Positions 10,502-17,371 of a stretch of DNA of 20,000 bases are shown here, one piece after another. The position numbers were made by a program, and so were the translations under genes. Origin of the DNA: an uncultured virus (IMG/VR IMGVR_UViG_3300044998_000523) (taxonomy: Duplodnaviria > Heunggongvirae > Uroviricota > Caudoviricetes); the IMG/VR virus record IMGVR_UViG_3300044998_000523, one strand, 5' to 3'. Numbering within the stretch: position 1 is the first letter of the stretch; each line of letters starts with the position of its first letter. The notes beneath the pieces were generated by a model. The model was given only the letters and a program-made list of their open reading frames with translations. It had not been told where the DNA came from and did no database searches.

Positions 10502-11131
10502 AGAGATGATGCCAATCTTGGTTCAAGGCCTGCTTATCTGTGATTCGTTTTAGGTCTATATTTTGTTGTTTGCAAAATTCGTCTAAGAGTCTATCTCTAT
10601 CAAATTTTTGCGAATTCGTTCTTCAAGTTTGTCATAGGGTTGATCTAATCCGTGCCAATATGTTCCATCGACTTCAATGAATAAGTTTTGGCTTGGAATG
10701 TAAAGATCAATAGAGCAAAGCCCAAAAGGGGTTTGAAGATAATGCCATCTTTTAACTTCTCTAAATCGTTTTAGACATTCTTCATATACAAGATTTTCCG
10801 CGTTGGAAGTGAAATTTGCTTTTCCCTTTTTTAGTTTTGTTTCGTTAGCTTTTTGTCTGTTTTGCGGTTCATGAGCTATTGAGAGCGCTCTAAGACATTG
10901 GCCGCTTAATGCAGCGTTTTTTCCTGAGATCGGACCTCCAGCTTTTCCGCCCTTCGACGCTATAGCGGCGTTATGACATGGTTTACAACAATGTTTATTT
11001 GATGATAAGACTTTTTTGTTTCCTCTTCGAGACCATTCTTTGAGACATTTAGAGCTGACACCAAAATCACATTTAAATCGATAAAGCTTGTAAAGTCCTG
11101 CGTATTTTTCTTTTGATACACCAAGCAACAT
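10494..11131 (-). pseudogene. Vsr/DUF559-like PD-(D/E)XK endonuclease, frameshifted near the C-terminus
   Basis: SIDLYIPSQNLFIEVDGTYWHG motif. The in-frame stop is at 10583, but the -1 frame from the A run at 10605-10609 continues KFDRDRLLDEFCKQQNIDLKRITD to TAG 10494-10496, which is the expected family C-terminus. AT-rich and the only minus-strand gene. Confidence 0.75.
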
Positions 11132-12050: not shown

Positions 12051-12121
12051 TCAGGGGTCGTCTAACTGGTAGGACTCTTGGCTCTGAACCAAGCAATGGG
12101 GGTCGATTCCCTCGCCCTGAT
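12051..12121 (+). tRNA. tRNA-Gln(CTG)
   Basis: TCAGGG/CCCTGA acceptor and CTTGG-CTCTGAA-CCAAG arm. The T arm GGGGGTCGATTCCCTC is slightly aberrant. Confidence 0.8.
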
Positions 12122-12138
12122 CTAGGAAAGGTAAAGTC

Positions 12139-12405: not shown

Positions 12406-12477
12406 TGGTCGTTCTTCCAACGGCTAGGAAAACCGGCTCCCGGGTAATGGGGGGTTCGAATCCCTCACGACCAACCA
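12406..12477 (+). tRNA. tRNA-like gene lacking most of the anticodon loop (undetermined)
   Basis: TGGTCGT/ACGACCA-A-CCA with normal D and T arms. The anticodon arm is CCGG-CTC-CCGG, a loop of only 3 nt. Confidence 0.7.
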
Positions 12478-13619: not shown

Positions 13620-13959
13620 ATGATCAAAAGCGAAATTTCCTTTCCTCAAGAGACTGTCGGAATCGGTCTCGAAGATCGATCATCCCAGCATCGATATCCA
13701 ACTCGTCGCTAACGAGGATGTATACGTCGAAAGCGACGCCTTCGAGCAGCTCTTAAAGCTGCGAGTCATCACTCCGATCTATCCCGAGTCCCCGCGCATC
13801 AAGTCACGTCGGGACATCATGACCTAGTATCGCAAGCGTGGCATGGAAAAGATGCCGTACGCTTACAAGGACATCGAGCCTGTCATCGATTCAGCCGAAG
13901 AGGCTCAGATTGCCAAGAAAGTGGTTCGTTTGGCTCCTCTGTGCATTGTCAAGGGCTAG
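13620..13959 (+). pseudogene. rtcB: RtcB RNA ligase remnant (large internal deletion, in-frame TAG, 5' frameshift)
   Basis: The frame from 13624 reads ...KIDHPSIDIQLVANEDVYVESDAFEQLLK|LRVITPIYPESPRIKSRRDIMT*YRKRGMEKMPYAYKDIEPVIDSAEEAQIAKKVVRLAPLCIVKG*. The PxAYKDI...V..L.P...KG* ending is the RtcB C-terminal signature. Confidence 0.85.
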
Positions 13960-13980
13960 GAGAAAAAAGTGACAGGGTGA

Positions 13981-14009
13981 GTGTAAACAGTCGACTACCA
14001 TGTTAGATT
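13981..14009 (+). promoter_or_regulatory. putative promoter
   Basis: A-tract, then GTGTAAAC-N15-TAGATT, about 20 nt upstream of tRNA-Glu. Confidence 0.6.
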
Positions 14010-14028
14010 TAGAATCCTAGTCAATCTG

Positions 14029-14103
14029 GCCCCCATCGACCACTGGCTAAGTCAGCTGGTTTTCACCCAGCAGAACCGGGATCGATACCCGGTGGGGTCA
14101 CCA
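14029..14103 (+). tRNA. tRNA-Glu(TTC)
   Basis: GCTGG-TTTTCAC-CCAGC arm, CCGGGATCGATACCCGG T arm and ACCA end. Confidence 0.88.
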
Positions 14104-14107
14104 GTTT

Positions 14108-14171
14108 GGTCCTGTCATGCTAACGGCTTAGGCGACTGCCCTCTCAAGGCAGGGATACGGGTTCGAATCCC
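14108..14171 (+). pseudogene. 3'-truncated tRNA-Glu(CTC)
   Basis: GGTCCTG 5' strand, D arm, CTGCC-CTCTCAA-GGCAG and ACGGGTTCGAATCCC, then unrelated sequence. No CAGGACC 3' strand follows. Confidence 0.75.
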
Positions 14172-14224
14172 TCCGCTATTAAGACACATGCACAAAGGAG
14201 AAGGAGTGAGACTAGAACCGCTCA

Positions 14225-14335
14225 ATGTGCAAGTTCTGCATGCTGGCTCAGCAGTTGTCGGGCCAACCGATGATGTGCAAGCCGTGCTGGCACAAGGCTT
14301 ATAAAAATCGTAAGCCGAAGAAGCGACAGAGTTGA
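14225..14335 (+). CDS. 36-aa CxxC..CxxC zinc-binding mini-protein (or remnant)
   Basis: MCKFCMLAQQLSGQPMMCKPCWHKAYKNRKPKKRQS*, ending just before a terminator. Confidence 0.45.
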   Translation: MCKFCMLAQQLSGQPMMCKPCWHKAYKNRKPKKRQS

Positions 14336-14340
14336 GTGAG

Positions 14341-14368
14341 AAGGACCCATTCGGGTCCTTTTCCTTTT
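14341..14368 (+). terminator. intrinsic terminator
   Basis: AAGGACCC-ATTC-GGGTCCTT hairpin followed by TTCCTTTT. Confidence 0.8.
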
Positions 14369-14426
14369 AATAGGAGCGGCTAGTTTTCAAGGCCTCCGAG
14401 CAAAAAAGAAAAAAGTGCTCGCGGAA

Positions 14427-14455
14427 GTGCAAACAGCCTGCAGATCTGGTATATC
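14427..14455 (+). promoter_or_regulatory. putative promoter
   Basis: A-tracts, then GTGCAAAC-N15-TATATC(T), directly after the terminator and upstream of a structured RNA. Confidence 0.5.
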
Positions 14456-14469
14456 TATAAAACACGACG

Positions 14470-14805
14470 AACTCAAGCGGTTCGGAGCAAGACAATGAAC
14501 TTCGTAGATTCACATAGCAGAATGGGGAGCCGAGATTCGGCGGACCTGTGCGTGTGGTCCGATGCTGTCCGCCCGAACGTCGCCGCCCTTATCAATCCCT
14601 TTCGGGGATGATAAGTCGCGGAGCCGGCCCGAATCCGGCAAAGAGTCACGAGTCCCCGATAGGGGACGGAAGCTTCATAAGATGTCGCTTCTTGGGTTTG
14701 TCGCCGCTCTAACGGAATACCGGATGAAGCGACTGGAGCGGATGCTTGAAGGCATCTGACGCCAACCAAGATGGAGATATGGGAATGACCGTATCTTCGA
14801 AAGCA
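14470..14805 (+). ncRNA. unclassified large structured RNA (~335 nt)
   Basis: No credible ORF. Many helices, including GTTCGG/CCGAAC, CTTATCA/TGATAAG, GTCCCC/GGGGAC, and the crossing pairs GTCGCTTC/GAAGCGAC and CCGCTCTA/TGGAGCGG. Ends are approximate. Confidence 0.6.
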
Positions 14806-14815
14806 CAATGTATTT

Positions 14816-14890
14816 GCCCGCGTAGTTCAGTGGATTTAGAACGCCTGTCTACGAAACAGGAGGTCGCAGGTTCGAGTCCTGCCGCGGGTA
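14816..14890 (+). tRNA. tRNA-Arg(ACG)
   Basis: Canonical cloverleaf with CCTGT-CTACGAA-ACAGG. Confidence 0.95.
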
Positions 14891-14929
14891 CTATTCTCCT
14901 TAATATACGTGCATACGCACGTTCAATTT

Positions 14930-15005
14930 GCCACCTAAGCTAATCTGGTGAAAGCGGCTGCCTGAAGAGCAGCAGAGCTCGGCTCGAAACCGAGAGGTGG
15001 CACCA
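14930..15005 (+). tRNA. tRNA-Phe(GAA)
   Basis: GCCACCT/AGGTGGC-A-CCA and GCTGC-CTGAAGA-GCAGC. Confidence 0.9.
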
Positions 15006-15076
15006 AACACGAAGTTTCGTCGATGAAACAAAGTGTTGTACAGGACATCCTACCTGGTTTAGGATGATCTTACTTT

Positions 15077-15153
15077 CAGCGTGTAGCTCAGCCTGGTATT
15101 AGAGCGCTACCTTGGGGTGGTAGAGGTCGCGGGTTCGAATCCCGCTTCGCTGA
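15077..15153 (+). tRNA. tRNA-Pro(GGG)
   Basis: CTACC-TTGGGGT-GGTAG with canonical D and T arms. One mismatch in the acceptor stem. Confidence 0.88.
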
Positions 15154-15155
15154 CT

Positions 15156-15463
15156 CGGTTGGTGGTCGTATCTGGTGGTCGAAACTTAACTCCCGCTCGG
15201 GGTAAGACACCGGCAACGGACACTGGTCGGATCTAACGTATCTAGGAAGCATAAAGCAGCGGCGAAGGGGATCAATGCAGTGGCCTATTCCTCTTCAAAG
15301 CATAACGCCGACACTAATCGGACCAGAGCTTGGGCGTTTGCGAGTAAAACCTCGCTCCGTCGCTAACGGTGAGATCGCTACTCACCTAGACGGATGGCTG
15401 AAGAATGCGACTTTGATAGGAAGGTAAAAGAGGTGGTTCTCTTTTCGGATCGATCATCAACCG
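15156..15463 (+). ncRNA. unclassified large structured RNA (308 nt)
   Basis: 13-bp terminal helix CGGTTGGTGGTCG/CGATCATCAACCG enclosing nested helices (CTGGTC/GACCAG, CGGCG/CGCCG, GCGAG/CTCGC, TCCGTC/GACGGA, GGTGAG/CTCACC, AAAAGAG/CTCTTTT). It fills the inter-tRNA gap almost exactly. Confidence 0.7.
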
Positions 15464-15467
15464 TAAC

Positions 15468-15542
15468 GGACGAGTAGCTCAGCAACAGAGCGACCGGATT
15501 TTAACCGGGAGGTCGGAGGTGTAAGTCCTCCCTCGTCCACCA
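15468..15542 (+). tRNA. tRNA-Lys(TTT), non-canonical elbow
   Basis: GGACGAG/CTCGTCC-A-CCA and CCGG-ATTTTAA-CCGG. The D loop lacks GG and the T loop is TGTAAGT. Confidence 0.75.
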
Positions 15543-15543
15543 T

Positions 15544-15621
15544 GGAGAAGTAGCTCAGGCTAGAAGAGCGCCAGAAATTTGATTCTGGAGGTCGGGTGTG
15601 CAAATCATCCCTTTTCCACCA
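15544..15621 (+). tRNA. tRNA-like, undetermined anticodon (8-nt loop AATTTGAT)
   Basis: GGAGAAG/CTTTTCC-A-CCA, GCTC/GAGC D stem, CCAGA/TCTGG stem and T loop TGCAAAT. Confidence 0.7.
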
Positions 15622-15699
15622 AGACAAGAGACTAGAAGCCCTCCCGGAACATTGGGCCTAGCACGGAATATTCAGGTACCGAGGGCCTGGTGTTCATTT

Positions 15700-15772
15700 G
15701 CCCGAGTAGCTCAGCAACAGAGCGTCCCCAGTTTAACGGGGAAGGTCGAAGGTGTAAGTCCTTCCTCGGGCT
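15700..15772 (+). tRNA. tRNA-like, undetermined anticodon (8-nt loop AGTTTAAC; TTT or TTA)
   Basis: GCCCGAG/CTCGGGC acceptor and TCCCC/GGGGA stem. D arm and T loop are identical to those of the 15468 tRNA. Confidence 0.7.
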
Positions 15773-15779
15773 CTAATTT

Positions 15780-15855
15780 CCCACTGTAGCTCAGACTCGA
15801 GAGCGCCTGGCAAGAAGGCCGGGAGGCGATGGCTCGTTGCCATCCGGTGGGACCA
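15780..15855 (+). tRNA. tRNA-like, undetermined anticodon (loop CAAGAAGG)
   Basis: CCCACTG/CGGTGGG-A-CCA, GCTC/GAGC, CCTGG/CCGGG and T arm GATGG-CTCGTTG-CCATC. Confidence 0.68.
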
Positions 15856-15860
15856 ATCTT

Positions 15861-15936
15861 GAGGTCCTCGTCTAACACTGAGGATAGCTCCCAGAATCGG
15901 GAGAAGATCGAGGTGTGAATCCTCGGGACCTCGCCA
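15861..15936 (+). tRNA. tRNA-like, undetermined anticodon (6-nt loop AGAATC)
   Basis: GAGGTCC/GGACCTC-G-CCA, CTCCC/GGGAG and T arm CGAGG-TGTGAAT-CCTCG. Confidence 0.68.
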
Positions 15937-15941
15937 ACTTC

Positions 15942-16013
15942 TCCCTCGTAGCTTAACAAGAGAGCCCGGCGCTTCAGCCGGAGATCCTGTCTCGAAGGCA
16001 GGCGAGGGAGCCA
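15942..16013 (+). tRNA. tRNA-like, undetermined anticodon (6-nt loop GCTTCA)
   Basis: TCCCTCG/CGAGGGA-G-CCA, GCTT/GAGC, CCGGC/GCCGG and T arm CCTGT-CTCGAAG-GCAGG. Confidence 0.68.
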
Positions 16014-16019
16014 ATTTCA

Positions 16020-16097
16020 GGGGACCTAGTTTAGTACCAGCAGAACAACAGCTAAGTTAGGCTGAAGGCCGAGGTGCAATTCCTCGGGTCCCCTCCA
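16020..16097 (+). tRNA. tRNA-like, undetermined anticodon (loop TAAGTTAG)
   Basis: GGGGACC/GGTCCCC-T-CCA, CAGC/GCTG and T arm CGAGG-TGCAATT-CCTCG. Confidence 0.68.
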
Positions 16098-16100
16098 TTT

Positions 16101-16177
16101 GCTCGAGTACGCCAAAAGTAGAGCGGGCCCCATAAAGGCGGGGCTGGTTGGTGGTTCGTATCCACCCTCGAGTACCA
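16101..16177 (+). tRNA. tRNA-like, undetermined anticodon (8-nt loop ATAAAGGC)
   Basis: GCTCGAG/CTCGAGT-A-CCA, GCCCC/GGGGC and T arm GGTGG-TTCGTAT-CCACC. Confidence 0.68.
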
Positions 16178-16185
16178 AATTCATC

Positions 16186-16614
16186 ATGGAACTTGTAAAG
16201 TGTCCTCATTGTGATAAGATGTGTCATCCCAAATTTGGGATCAAAACACACATTTGGAGAGTCCACGGTGGAGGTCAGATTCATGATCCTAATCGAGGAT
16301 TCATTGACGGTTCTCGTTCTCAATGGAACAGAGATAAATGGAGCAAATCTCCAGATGAAATTCTTGTAAAGAGTGATAAGAAACACGGATCGCTAGGTCT
16401 TTGGCTTAAAAGAAGTGGGCGGGAGCACAAATGTGAAGTCTGCGAACTCGGTCCGTTTTGGAACGGTCAGAAACTAAATCTCCAAGTTGACCATATCGAC
16501 GGTGACAACACAAATCACGTTCCAACGAATCTTCGATTTATCTGTCCGAATTGTCACACTCAAACTCCAACTTATGCTTGGAGAAATAGAAAACGTAAAA
16601 AGTCTGGGCTATGA
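16186..16614 (+). CDS. HNH homing endonuclease with N-terminal C2H2 zinc finger
   Basis: CPHC...HIWRVH, then CEVC...LQVDHIDGDNTNHVPTNLRFICPNCHTQT. The start is taken at ATG 16186, after the tRNA. Confidence 0.88.
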   Translation: MELVKCPHCDKMCHPKFGIKTHIWRVHGGGQIHDPNRGFIDGSRSQWNRDKWSKSPDEILVKSDKKHGSLGLWLKRSGREHKCEVCELGPFWNGQKLNLQVDHIDGDNTNHVPTNLRFICPNCHTQTPTYAWRNRKRKKSGL

Positions 16615-16677
16615 CGTGCTGGTTGCACTGAGAAACCTGATAAGTTTCTTGGACAGATTCGATTTCTGTATAGCCCA
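16606..16677 (+). tRNA. tRNA-Ile(GAT)
   Basis: GGGCTAT/ATAGCCC and GAAAC-CTGATAA-GTTTC, with an unusual D arm. The 5' end overlaps the HNH stop codon. Confidence 0.75.
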
Positions 16678-16681
16678 CTAT

Positions 16682-16929
16682 CCTCTCGTGGCGGAAAGGA
16701 AGACGCGCCGTTAAAAAGCGATGGTCAAATCCACGGTCTCCTTGAGTGGAGGCGTCCAAGCTGACCCTGACACAAGCACGATGTGGTGTTGCCTAGGCGT
16801 GACATCAGGGAAGGCTACAGCAGGTTTGCGGAGGCACCGAATGGCAGCGAGTAGCGGTCGCTAGGGAAGCACGCTTGTCCTAAAAAGCTGTGGACGCGGT
16901 TGAGGGTTCGAATCCCTCCGAGAGGACCA
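16682..16929 (+). ncRNA. 248-nt tRNA-shaped RNA with ~175-nt structured insertion
   Basis: CCTCTCG/CGAGAGG-A-CCA acceptor, Leu-type D arm GCG-GAAAGGAAGA-CGC and canonical T arm GAGGGTTCGAATCCCTC, with a multi-helix insert between them. Confidence 0.75.
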
Positions 16930-16931
16930 AC

Positions 16932-17020
16932 TTGGCGTGCGTTAGTAGCCCGCTCGATCCGTCGTTATGCGGCGGGTGCCTGATCAGCCGAGTAGTCGGG
17001 TGCAAATCCCGAGCGCCAAA
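16932..17020 (+). ncRNA. tRNA-like RNA with branched anticodon domain
   Basis: TTGGCGT/GCGCCAA stem stacked on T arm TCGGG-TGCAAAT-CCCGA. A GCTCG/CGAGT stem encloses the hairpin ATCCGTCG-TTATG-CGGCGGGT. Confidence 0.55.
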
Positions 17021-17026
17021 ACATTT

Positions 17027-17119
17027 TCTCCCCTGCCGGAATTGGCATACGGTGCCCTCGAGGTAGGACGCCTAGGCAACGAAAGCGCGTTACGGGTTCG
17101 AGTCTCGTGGGGAGAACCA
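17027..17119 (+). tRNA. tRNA-Leu(GAG)-like, aberrant anticodon arm
   Basis: TCTCCCC/GGGGAGA-A-CCA, Leu-type D arm and long variable region. The anticodon arm GCCCT-CGAGGT-AGGAC has a 6-nt loop. Confidence 0.6.
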
Positions 17120-17129
17120 ATTCATATTT

Positions 17130-17202
17130 GCCGGGTTATTTCAGCGGCTAGAATGTCTCTTTTACAAGGAGAAGGTCGGGGGTTCGAGTCCCTCACCCGG
17201 TA
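17130..17202 (+). tRNA. tRNA-Val(TAC)
   Basis: GCCGGGT/ACCCGGT, TCTCT-TTTACAA-GGAGA and a canonical T arm. Confidence 0.92.
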
Positions 17203-17212
17203 CTAGCAATTT

Positions 17213-17287
17213 GGGAGAGTAGCTTAAGAAACAGAGCACCGGCCGTAGGGGCCGGGCGTGGCGGTGTAAAGCCGTCCTCTTCCACCA
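17213..17287 (+). tRNA. tRNA-like, undetermined (loop CGTAGGG, no U33)
   Basis: GGGAGAG/CTCTTCC-A-CCA, CCGGC/GCCGG and T loop TGTAAAG. The D loop lacks GG. Confidence 0.65.
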
Positions 17288-17292
17288 AATTT

Positions 17293-17367
17293 GCTCCATG
17301 ATGCGATTGGTATCGCAGAACCGCTGTCTACGGTTTGAAACGGGTTCGATTCCCGTATGGGGCGCCA
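17293..17367 (+). tRNA. tRNA-Asp(GTC)
   Basis: GCTCCAT/ATGGGGC-G-CCA and AACCG-CTGTCTA-CGGTT. Confidence 0.9.
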
Positions 17368-17371
17368 AATT

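Follow-up and report, generated by a model that had tools for sequence, protein, structure and literature searches.

The seven consecutive tRNA-shaped units that follow a tRNA-Lys(UUU) gene in the DNA of an uncultured Caudoviricetes virus are very probably selected, functional RNAs, since a relative as distant as the phage contig G002 has preserved them. The units, called mimics in the following, are not ordinary decoders: their anticodon loops are all of 6 or 8 nt, U33 is mostly absent and canonical isoacceptors are present. The array was analysed in a window of 20,000 nucleotides, the term denoting here the whole stretch of DNA under study (IMG/VR record IMGVR_UViG_3300044998_000523), and its members are described in Table 1. 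Why tRNA genes occur in phages has been a matter of debate for fifty years, and escape from tRNA-cutting defences is the answer now preferred. If the present reading is true, the array would represent a second, RNA-only phage strategy in which tRNA is imitated instead of being replaced.

Table 1. Units of the array and associated features, with their positions in the window and their comparison with the relative contig G002
Feature	Position	Strand	Anticodon loop and 3' end	Compared with G002	Other properties
tRNA-Lys(UUU), canonical, array head	15468..15542	+		2 compensatory acceptor pairs	Called by ARAGORN; Rfam 55 bits; structural parse; scaffold unusual and common to several mimics (D loop without GG, T loop TGTAAGT)
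Mimic 1	15544..15621	+	8-nt loop AATTTGAT, or 6-bp stem with 6-nt loop; CCA encoded	Loop 8/8 identical; 2 compensatory T-stem pairs; 1 broken pair	Nearest paralog Lys(TTT), 72%
Insertion of 74 nt between mimics 1 and 2, outside the mimics	15622..15695	+		Similar 66-nt piece elsewhere in G002	One copy per record; 4/4 other runs join 15621 to 15696
Mimic 2	15700..15775	+	8-nt loop AGTTTAAC; tail TCTA	Loop 8/8 and stem pairs 21/21 identical; tail TCCA in G002	Lys(TTT) paralog (83%); minimum-energy fold is the cloverleaf, z -3.8; Rfam 46.5 bits
Mimic 3	15780..15855	+	T-free 8-nt loop CAAGAAGG, or 6-bp stem with 6-nt loop; CCA encoded	Loop 8/8 identical; 1 compensatory acceptor pair	T loop CTCGTTG; without RF00005 match
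Mimic 4, fast-evolving	15861..15936	+	Loop CAGAATCG, or 6 nt AGAATC; CCA encoded	Loop 2/8 identical; 6 double-compensatory pairs (4 acceptor), 4 one-sided, 0 broken	
Mimic 5, compact, without nucleotide 26	15942..16013	+	6-nt loop GCTTCA; CCA encoded	Loop 5/6 identical (GTTTCA in G002); pairs 20/21 unchanged, 1 one-sided change	
Mimic 6	16020..16097	+	Loop TAAGTTAG, or 6 nt; CCA encoded	Entire anticodon arm different, both flanking gene halves identical; 7-nt loop ATATCGC in G002, called Asp 'atc' by ARAGORN	
Mimic 7	16101..16177	+	8-nt loop ATAAAGGC; CCA encoded	Loop 8 nt in both, 1/8 identical; 2 compensatory acceptor pairs	ARAGORN '???' with 'aaag'
Related scaffold member outside the array	17213..17287	+	7-nt loop CGTAGGG, G at 33; CCA encoded		z -3.3; 72% to Lys(TTT); missing with tRNA-Asp in X5, X8 and X9 contigs (joint 17210->17370)

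The sequence-only reading of the window had described seven consecutive cloverleafs after Lys(TTT) with paired acceptor and T stems, six with CCA, and anticodon loops of 6 or 8 nt throughout, most without U33; a cloverleaf scan and the sequence itself bear out this description, including the individual loops listed. All seven units lie on the + strand directly 3' of the tRNA-Lys gene, and in each of them a 7-bp acceptor stem and a 5-bp T stem are fully paired, G-U pairs being allowed, and are joined by D and anticodon stems into the cloverleaf of RF00005, mimic 5 pairing like the other six. Only mimic 2 lacks an encoded CCA in the window, and the tail is encoded by 13 of the 14 mimic copies of the window and G002 as against 7 of the 13 canonical tRNAs of the window. 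The anticodon loops are of 8 nt, or of 6 nt when the first and last loop bases pair, and the canonical combination of a 7-nt loop with U33 and a purine at position 37 is found in none. The spacers between the units are of 1-10 nt, except for the lineage-specific insertion of 74 nt.

A strict cloverleaf scan of positions 15401-16250 found seven structures, six of them with CCA, a count that takes in Lys(TTT) and leaves out mimic 5; in 200 dinucleotide shuffles the mean was 0.01 strict cloverleafs and the maximum 1. The minimum-energy fold is the full cloverleaf for mimics 2, 3, 5 and 6, while the acceptor, anticodon and T hairpins are kept in the remaining three, with a differently folded D region in mimics 1 and 7 and refolding around the anticodon hairpin in mimic 4. 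Folding z-scores of the mimics range from -2.2 to -3.8 (Lys(TTT), -2.9). As the G-U pairs of the array are present only in the + strand reading, its structure is RNA structure.

The elbow of the mimics is of an unusual kind, without the canonical pairing of a GG-containing D loop and a T-Psi-C T loop. A standard TTCG-type T loop is seen only in mimic 7 (TTCGTAT), the others being TGCAAAT, TGTAAGT, CTCGTTG, TGTGAAT, CTCGAAG and TGCAATT, and G18-G19 is at its usual place in none of the seven D loops, the sole GG dinucleotide occupying loop positions 2-3 of mimic 1. In the parsed alignment of the window and G002, a different but matched contact between the D and T loops is preserved, with A before position 19 and G at 55; the alternative elbow pair 19-56 is A-T in Lys and mimic 2 and G-C in mimics 1 and 16020 (mimic 6).

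The array was compared base by base between the window and one full relative, the syntenic phage contig G002. The ORFs of the two are 79.4% identical in nucleotides and their four-fold degenerate sites 51.2% identical (846 sites in nine ORFs; a tenth ORF gave no match), and G002 nevertheless keeps all seven mimics, the bodies of which are 85-96% identical against the 51% at silent sites. Among 147 stem pairs of the mimics, 119 are unchanged, 11 are changed on one side and still paired, 13 are changed on both sides and still paired, 2 have lost pairing in one of the genomes and 2 pair in neither, so that 24 of the 26 changed pairs still pair; the same parse of five canonical tRNAs gave 89, 4, 9, 0 and 3 of 105 pairs for these classes. 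The comparison shows that the seven genes have been kept by purifying selection in two or more phage lineages whose silent sites are close to saturation. The earlier proposition that the bodies are selected while decoding is not thus holds for the bodies and fails in part for the loops, four of the seven being conserved: over mimics 1, 2, 3 and 5, 29 of 30 loop nucleotides are identical, for which the chance at 51% per site is about 6e-8. The loops of mimics 4, 6 and 7 are not conserved, that of mimic 6 being of 8 nt in the window and of 7 nt in G002; no donor copy for its swapped anticodon arm was found in G001-G005.

An indel artefact had been named as the finding that would overturn the sequence-only reading, and the loops of G002 are of the same length in six of the seven mimics, the ortholog of mimic 6 alone having 7 nt. 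Contigs of X5, X6, X8 and X9, which come from four studies of other metagenomes, span 15544-15621 without gaps, and run X6 spans 15696-15864 with three differences and no gap. With loop lengths found again in G002 and in the contigs from other studies, the mimics are not assembly artefacts. The contig G001 is identical to the window over 13900-17199; one T-run indel separates the two at 10605, pointing to homopolymer noise in these assemblies.

Standard gene finders recover little of the array. The expected undetermined or pseudogene calls were obtained from ARAGORN for mimics 1 and 7 only (tRNA-??? with 'tt' and 'aaag', respectively), the other five being passed over entirely. With RF00005, mimic 2 (46.5 bits) and mimic 1 (45.4 bits) are the two that reach the 29-bit level, and the other five gave no match at E<=10 even when 761 nt only were searched. 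Because five of the seven mimics are missed by the standard gene finders, counts of such genes in phage genomes are probably too low. Judged from their identity, mimics 1 and 2 would have originated from the adjacent Lys(TTT) gene (72% and 83%), while in the search for parent isoacceptors of mimics 3, 5 and 6 no paralog stood out, all being at about 0.6 identity.

Pattern and protein scans of IMG/VR identified G002 as the only close relative, and in addition L002, which has the same scaffold but belongs to an unrelated phage; a metagenome scan yielded only unrelated phages carrying CTA-anticodon tRNAs on that scaffold (L006 and L007). The scaffold pattern had no match in 185,579 prokaryote genomes and megablast none among isolate phages, where two proteins of the window gave no match or remote matches only, and distant blastn found ordinary tRNAs only among the best 30 of 701 records. 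The more distant relative G003, a 309-kb phage, has 56 RF00005 matches, including two tRNAs without U33, and the strict scan found in it no cloverleaf whose loop is of 6 or 8 nt, 34 of 35 having 7 nt and one being a misparsed Tyr. Among the papers listed by the literature searches, none describes an array of this kind, conserved in phages and made up of tRNA look-alikes whose loops are of 6 or 8 nt.

A conserved structured RNA of 313 nt (15155-15467) lies directly upstream of the array. It matched no Rfam family, and its identification as RNase P was dropped as RF00010 was unmatched in G001 and G002. The promoter and terminator scan gave nothing notable inside the array, with counts near the shuffle expectation. 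Loop-to-loop complementarity among the mimics was also considered; an 8-nt match between mimics 4 and 1 seen by eye in the window is of 6 nt in G002 and is not repeated by other mimic pairs, and it was judged to be at chance level.

The mimics could be unorthodox decoders, acting as spare tRNAs that escape nucleases, as quadruplet or frameshift readers or, with mimic 2 read as TTA, as an ochre-type suppressor, an explanation that appears unlikely. The conservation of four loops would agree with decoding, and mimic 1 can be read as an extra A followed by A-T-TTG-A-T and mimic 7 as A-T-AAA-G-G followed by an extra C, each with U33 and purine 37 kept; a regular loop with one extra nucleotide nevertheless fits only these two, and mimic 2 if read as TTA, but not mimics 3, 4, 5 and 6, and U33 is missing in mimic 3, the loop of which is free of T, and replaced by G or C in mimics 2 and 5. 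Regular 7-nt loops do occur in the G002 ortholog of mimic 6 and on the same scaffold elsewhere (Phe in L002, CTA suppressors in L006 and L007), and a yeast mitochondrial tRNA with an 8-nt loop decodes (PMC7609411; PMC3113583), contrary to the earlier description of such loops as non-decodable (PMC7609411). Evasion of nucleases has been proposed for phage tRNAs in which the anticodon loop is changed (PMC10264068). For 6-nt loops, however, no decoding precedent was found in the literature, and five of the seven mimics are below any RF00005 threshold. There is also no decoding gap to be filled, because the same cluster holds canonical Lys(TTT), two Glu(TTC) and Phe(GAA) genes. The 18 ORFs checked in the window, which represents 20 kb of a genome of about 340 kb, are uninterrupted when read in the standard code; nine of them end in TAA and none needs quadruplet reading. 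Neither quadruplet sites nor ochre read-through is therefore needed.

It is likewise improbable that the mimics are former tRNA genes retained as modules of processing or stability, where a misfolded unit would spoil the maturation of a multi-tRNA transcript and selection would act on shape, leaving the loop free. Such an origin is made plausible by the decay of tRNA genes in the lineage of the window, which is visibly losing them. The unit at 12406, previously taken to be similar to the mimics, is in fact a tRNA-Gln(CTG) with a 4-nt deletion in its anticodon loop in this lineage only, intact in G002 and X9; a 1-nt T-loop deletion at 12051 is likewise absent from G002 and X9, and G002 has intact genes where the window shows an acceptor stem with one C too many (14108) and Glu(CTC) fused to Met(CAT) (about 14185-14260). 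The unit at 17213, also put forward as similar, does share the scaffold and differs in its 7-nt loop. Three of the seven loops drift, and mimics 6 and 7, being absent from one X8 contig that joins 16013 to 16198, may be dispensable. A freely drifting loop is, however, at odds with the four loops held at 29 of 30 nt, and RNase P does not require the anticodon or D stems, which are also kept here by compensatory changes. Further, there is no cargo between the units, the spacers being of 1-10 nt, and seven consecutive units have no obvious role as punctuation.

Far less probable is the view that the mimics are charged by synthetases, either to donate the aminoacyl group to a non-ribosomal transferase or to tie up the amino acid or the enzyme. 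The non-standard T and D loops of the mimics may resemble those of tRNAs excluded from the ribosome; 13 of 14 copies have preserved the acceptor stem, the discriminator and CCA, and the anticodon-like triplets with the following purine are conserved in four mimics, but no transferase gene was found in the 20-kb window (Pfam, 21 ORFs) and known identity sets such as G3:U70 are absent from the window/G002 parse. That the mimics are plain pseudogenes or sequencing indels without function, as their rejection by gene finders in most cases and homopolymer noise of the kind seen at 10605 might suggest, is scarcely credible in view of the recurrent loop lengths, the excess of body identity over silent sites and the 13 double compensatory changes.

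Regarding their role, the likeliest reading, tentatively proposed, is that the mimics act in trans as look-alikes of tRNA, directed at proteins of the host that bind tRNA and above all at anticodon nucleases. The mimics would be co-transcribed with the neighbouring tRNA genes, as the shared strand and the spacing of 1-10 nt suggest, and would then be excised by the host tRNA-processing enzymes. Host proteins that read the anticodon arm would meet one of the wrong shape, carried by an otherwise correct tRNA body, the anticodon nucleases of anti-phage defence being the prime candidate targets, and the mimics might serve as baits or as uncleavable competitors. The earlier idea of decoys would be compatible with the data, while the large cellular pool of tRNA with which a bait has to compete speaks against the bait reading. 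In a post hoc reading, the four conserved loops (mimics 1, 2, 3 and 5) contain the anticodon-like triplets TTG, TTT/TTA, GAA and TTC, with an altered 5' side and a purine after each; overall similarity names a parent only for mimics 1 and 2 (Lys), which bears against this reading of the triplets. A more specific and rather doubtful form of the proposal is an RNA counter-defence, in which doubles of the tRNA body, with the triplets of often attacked tRNAs (Lys, Gln, Glu and Phe types) and a deliberately spoiled turn at position 33, would be bound by host anticodon nucleases or by other defence proteins that read the anticodon, and neither cut nor released. Under such a counter-defence, the arms race would be fought out in the three loops that change fast, and the upstream 313-nt RNA may belong to the same module. 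The mimics would also be well-defined substrates with which the binding and cleavage of anticodon nucleases could be assayed.

Several known systems share features with the array. The tRNA cluster of phage T4 includes the stable 'species 1 and 2' RNAs, which are not known to be full cloverleafs with CCA; they resemble the mimics as stable non-tRNA RNAs inside a phage tRNA operon. A paper on Cluster M mycobacteriophages reportedly discusses odd tRNAs. Murine gammaherpesvirus 68 has tandem tRNA-like RNAs that are processed, are not known to be charged and provide the promoter and the processing signal for hairpin RNAs downstream of them. The likeness lies in the tandem viral RNAs of tRNA shape, whereas the phage array has spacers of 1-10 nt, a bacterial host and no cargo hairpin after its units; herpesvirus tRNAs are treated in two papers (PMC12239594, PMC12680231). 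The YrlA or Y RNA-like family (RF02553) is a tRNA-like module of bacterial and phage RNAs, while the mimics are without the long Ro-binding stem and reach 20.9 bits where the gathering threshold of the family is 69.

Yeast mitochondrial tRNA-Thr(UAG) and the suppressors SufB2 and SufJ retain U33. The yeast tRNA-Thr(UAG) has a natural 8-nt anticodon loop (PMC7609411, PMC3113583) and SufB2 and SufJ are +1 frameshift suppressors with 8-nt anticodon loops (PMC8324841, PMC4238358); the mimics share with them a tRNA body that is complete except for its loop of 8 nt, but each of these is encoded by a single gene and has a defined codon to read, as opposed to seven in tandem, some with 6-nt loops and without target sites in the 18 ORFs checked. 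The long tRNA gene arrays of cyanobacteria are likewise dense operons of extra tRNA genes, some treated as pseudogenes, of which 23 of 26 are charged and regarded as decoders and 3 of 26 are undetected; non-canonical roles are raised, and the available portion of the paper describes no family with altered loops such as that of the phage array (PMC8421152). A further comparison is offered by phage tRNAs with altered anticodon loops that are proposed to evade nucleases, which have 7-nt loops and are presumed to decode (PMC10264068). The mimics share with these the setting in a phage tRNA cluster, the concentration of changes in the anticodon loop and Lys(UUU)-type genes, and they depart from such nuclease-insensitive regular decoders, the loop of which differs from that of the host at the cleavage site, in the altered size of the loop, the loss of U33 in most of them and the presence of canonical copies nearby.

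Comparison of the window with related phage records and independent sequencing runs shows the seven cloverleaf units that follow tRNA-Lys(UUU) to be RNA genes that are conserved, have the shape of tRNAs, end in CCA and carry non-standard loops. The window covers part of the genome of a large uncultured phage and encodes GIY-YIG and HNH homing endonucleases, a 5'-3' exonuclease, a NUDIX protein and a cell-wall peptidase. Its + strand tRNA island spans 11.9-18.5 kb, in which ARAGORN identified 13 tRNAs with anticodons and made two '???' calls (15544 and 16101). The nearest record, G001 (21.3 kb, rated 6% complete), shows no difference from the window over 13900-17199; over 15.9 kb the sole difference is one T within a T run at 10605, which suggests that homopolymer lengths are uncertain in these assemblies. 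The stop codons of 18 ORFs between 987 and 19711 are TAA (9) and TGA (9), with no TAG. Two long + strand ORFs (167 and 199 aa), both kept in the syntenic relative G002, overlap in different frames at 1597-2401; this may be an ordinary overlap, since the second ORF clearly starts at an internal ATG.

Coordinates of the features (window positions unless a contig is named)
Feature	Position	Strand	Remark
tRNA-Lys(UUU)	15468-15542	+	directly precedes the seven units
Cloverleaf units 1-7 (starts)	15544, 15700, 15780, 15861, 15942, 16020, 16101	+	
313-nt stretch	15155-15467	+	between tRNA-Pro(GGG) and tRNA-Lys(UUU)
tRNA-Gln(CTG)	12406-12477		anticodon loop shorter by 4 nt than in G002
Second Gln(CTG)	12051-12125		one T lost from T loop relative to G002
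Second Glu(UUC)	14108-14181		extra C in acceptor stem relative to G002
Glu(CUC)/Met(CAU)	about 14185-14260		fused through deletion relative to G002
Scaffold members, window	15468-15542, 15700-15775, 17213-17287		
Scaffold members, unrelated phage contigs	L002:2453-2525(-); L006:1761-1835; L007:2176-2250(-)		

The sequence-only reading had described the array accurately: all seven units have acceptor stems of 7 and T stems of 5 paired positions, six encode CCA in the window, and the anticodon loops measure 8 nt, or 6 nt when their outermost bases are taken as paired. A strict cloverleaf scan of 15401-16250 found 7 cloverleafs, a count that includes Lys(UUU) and omits 15942; 200 shuffles gave 0.01 on average and never more than 1. 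The Rfam tRNA model accepted two of the units, 15700 with 46.5 bits and 15544 with 45.4 bits, which are 83% and 72% identical, respectively, to the adjacent Lys(UUU); the other five gave no match at E<=10, a 761-nt search included, and no canonical parent stands out for them by identity.

All seven units are present in unchanged order in G002, a 55-kb IMG/VR contig that shares synteny with at least 17 kb of the window. Nucleotide identity in nine shared ORFs is 79.4% (one further ORF gave no match) and falls to 51.2% at their 846 four-fold degenerate sites, so that about half of any unconstrained sequence is expected to have changed. When orthologous units were parsed by coordinates, 119 of 147 stem pairs were unchanged, 11 one-sided and 13 two-sided changes still paired, 2 pairs were broken in one genome and 2 mismatched in both. 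The same parse of five canonical tRNAs (Thr, Arg, Phe, Lys-UUU and Ile; Lys-CUU, Glu-UUC and Pro were excluded for want of a clean parse) gave 89, 4, 9, 0 and 3 of 105 pairs for these classes. Four double changes fall in the 7-bp acceptor stem of 15861 alone. G-U pairs occur only in the + strand reading, and thus the constraint acts on RNA. The array is also covered by Logan contigs from four runs of four studies (sludge, soil, aquatic and wastewater); 15544-15621 is gap-free in all four, 15696-15864 is gap-free with 3 differences in run X6, and 31 and 64 differences were counted in X5 (15696-16172) and X9 (15696-16298). On this comparative evidence, the units are neither artefact nor decay, and the explanation as plain pseudogenes or artefacts is highly improbable.

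The loops had also been taken to be unselected. This does not hold for 15544, 15700 and 15780 (8/8 nt identical to G002 in each) and 15942 (5/6), in which 29 of 30 nt are kept against a per-site expectation of 51% (chance about 6e-8, by our own arithmetic); it stands to the extent that the remaining three do vary. The 8-nt loops of 15861 and 16101 retain their length in G002 with 2/8 and 1/8 identities, and the entire anticodon arm of 16020 is exchanged there for an arm with a 7-nt loop (ARAGORN call Asp 'atc') between identical gene halves. One X8 contig (depth 4.4) joins 16013 to 16198 and hence lacks units 6 and 7; 18 nt replace 16014-16197 in it. Units 1-3 and 5 thus form a conserved core, unit 4 evolves fast, and units 6 and 7 are variable and perhaps dispensable. 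The four conserved loops can be read, post hoc, as an anticodon-like triplet (TTG, TTT or TTA, GAA, TTC) with an altered 5' side, followed by a purine.

Lys(UUU) and most units share a scaffold without the D-loop GG and the T-loop T-Psi-C; the members listed in the table have a 7-nt D loop and the T loop TGTAAGT. Aligned window and G002 rows show a matched alternative elbow, with G at 55 and A just before position 19. Positions 19 and 56 form A-T in Lys and 15700 but G-C in 15544 and 16020, and the G002 counterpart of 15700 has G-T. In unrelated phage contigs the scaffold bears regular 7-nt loops for Phe (L002) and the CTA amber suppressor (L006, L007), its anticodons across phage contigs being Lys, Phe and CTA. 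The pattern had no match among 185,579 prokaryote genomes and appears to be phage-only.

Several ordinary tRNA genes of the island are damaged in the window lineage. The 12406 element, earlier considered similar to the units, is one of these; its counterparts in X9 and G002 are intact, as are those of 12051, so that 12406 is a recent lesion and falls outside the conserved family. Since genes are lost in this island, the survival of the seven units is more telling. Presence and absence vary elsewhere too: about 89 nt replace the HNH gene region (16187-16614) in an X5 contig, and 17213 with tRNA-Asp (17211-17369) is missing in X5, X8 and X9. A 74-nt insertion (15622-15695) separating units 1 and 2 is missing from all four runs; a similar 66-nt piece lies one gene further upstream in G002, and each record has a single copy. 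The insertion is possibly a mobile or hairpin element of small size.

The 313-nt stretch upstream is about 92% identical to G002, against 51% at silent sites, with no ORF above 50 aa. RNAalifold predicted 97 pairs, including a long terminal helix joining both ends, and all 12 changes at paired positions (six two-sided, six one-sided) still pair, none being broken. It matched no Rfam family and was not found in the related records G003-G005 or elsewhere in IMG/VR; the stretch is thus a probable new structured RNA, presumably freed by processing of the tRNAs on either side. At L035:2976-3127(-) and L034:3778-4023(-), the more distant G003 (309 kb) has two adjoining CCA-ended tRNAs whose 7-nt loops lack U33 (AGAATAA, GATTATC), and three successive tRNA-like genes that score low and combine regular Arg-type loops with a rearranged D-arm region. 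A weak match of only 89 nt to bacterial RNase P RNA (RF00010; 21.2 bits, E 1.4e-5) lies in the tRNA cluster of G003 at G003:C1:262137-262225(-), on stretch L036.

As regards function, we tentatively prefer, while giving it less than even weight, that the units, presumably co-transcribed and processed together with neighbouring tRNAs, would act in trans as tRNA mimics, in which host proteins that read the anticodon arm meet a changed arm attached to a correct tRNA body, with the anticodon nucleases of anti-phage defence as first candidates. This fits the conservation of loops despite the loss of U33, the presence of canonical isoacceptors alongside and the fast turnover of some loops. Unorthodox decoding by the units is unlikely, though decoding with 8-nt loops is possible (PMC7609411); a role as processing or stability modules is similarly doubtful, and one as charged non-ribosomal donors quite improbable.

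Conserved phage arrays of tRNA look-alikes with 6- or 8-nt loops were not found described in the literature searched. XacN1 is reported to carry 58 tRNA-like sequences, among which are two suppressors and one pseudogene per terminal repeat (PMC5852040), and a jumbo-phage review covers tRNA repair systems (PMC7824862). The mimics proposed here may be compared with the phage tRNAs for which van den Berg et al. (PMC10264068) proposed evasion of anticodon nucleases via substitutions in the loop. Loop length stays at 7 nt in those tRNAs, whereas the loops of the window units are of 6 or 8 nt.
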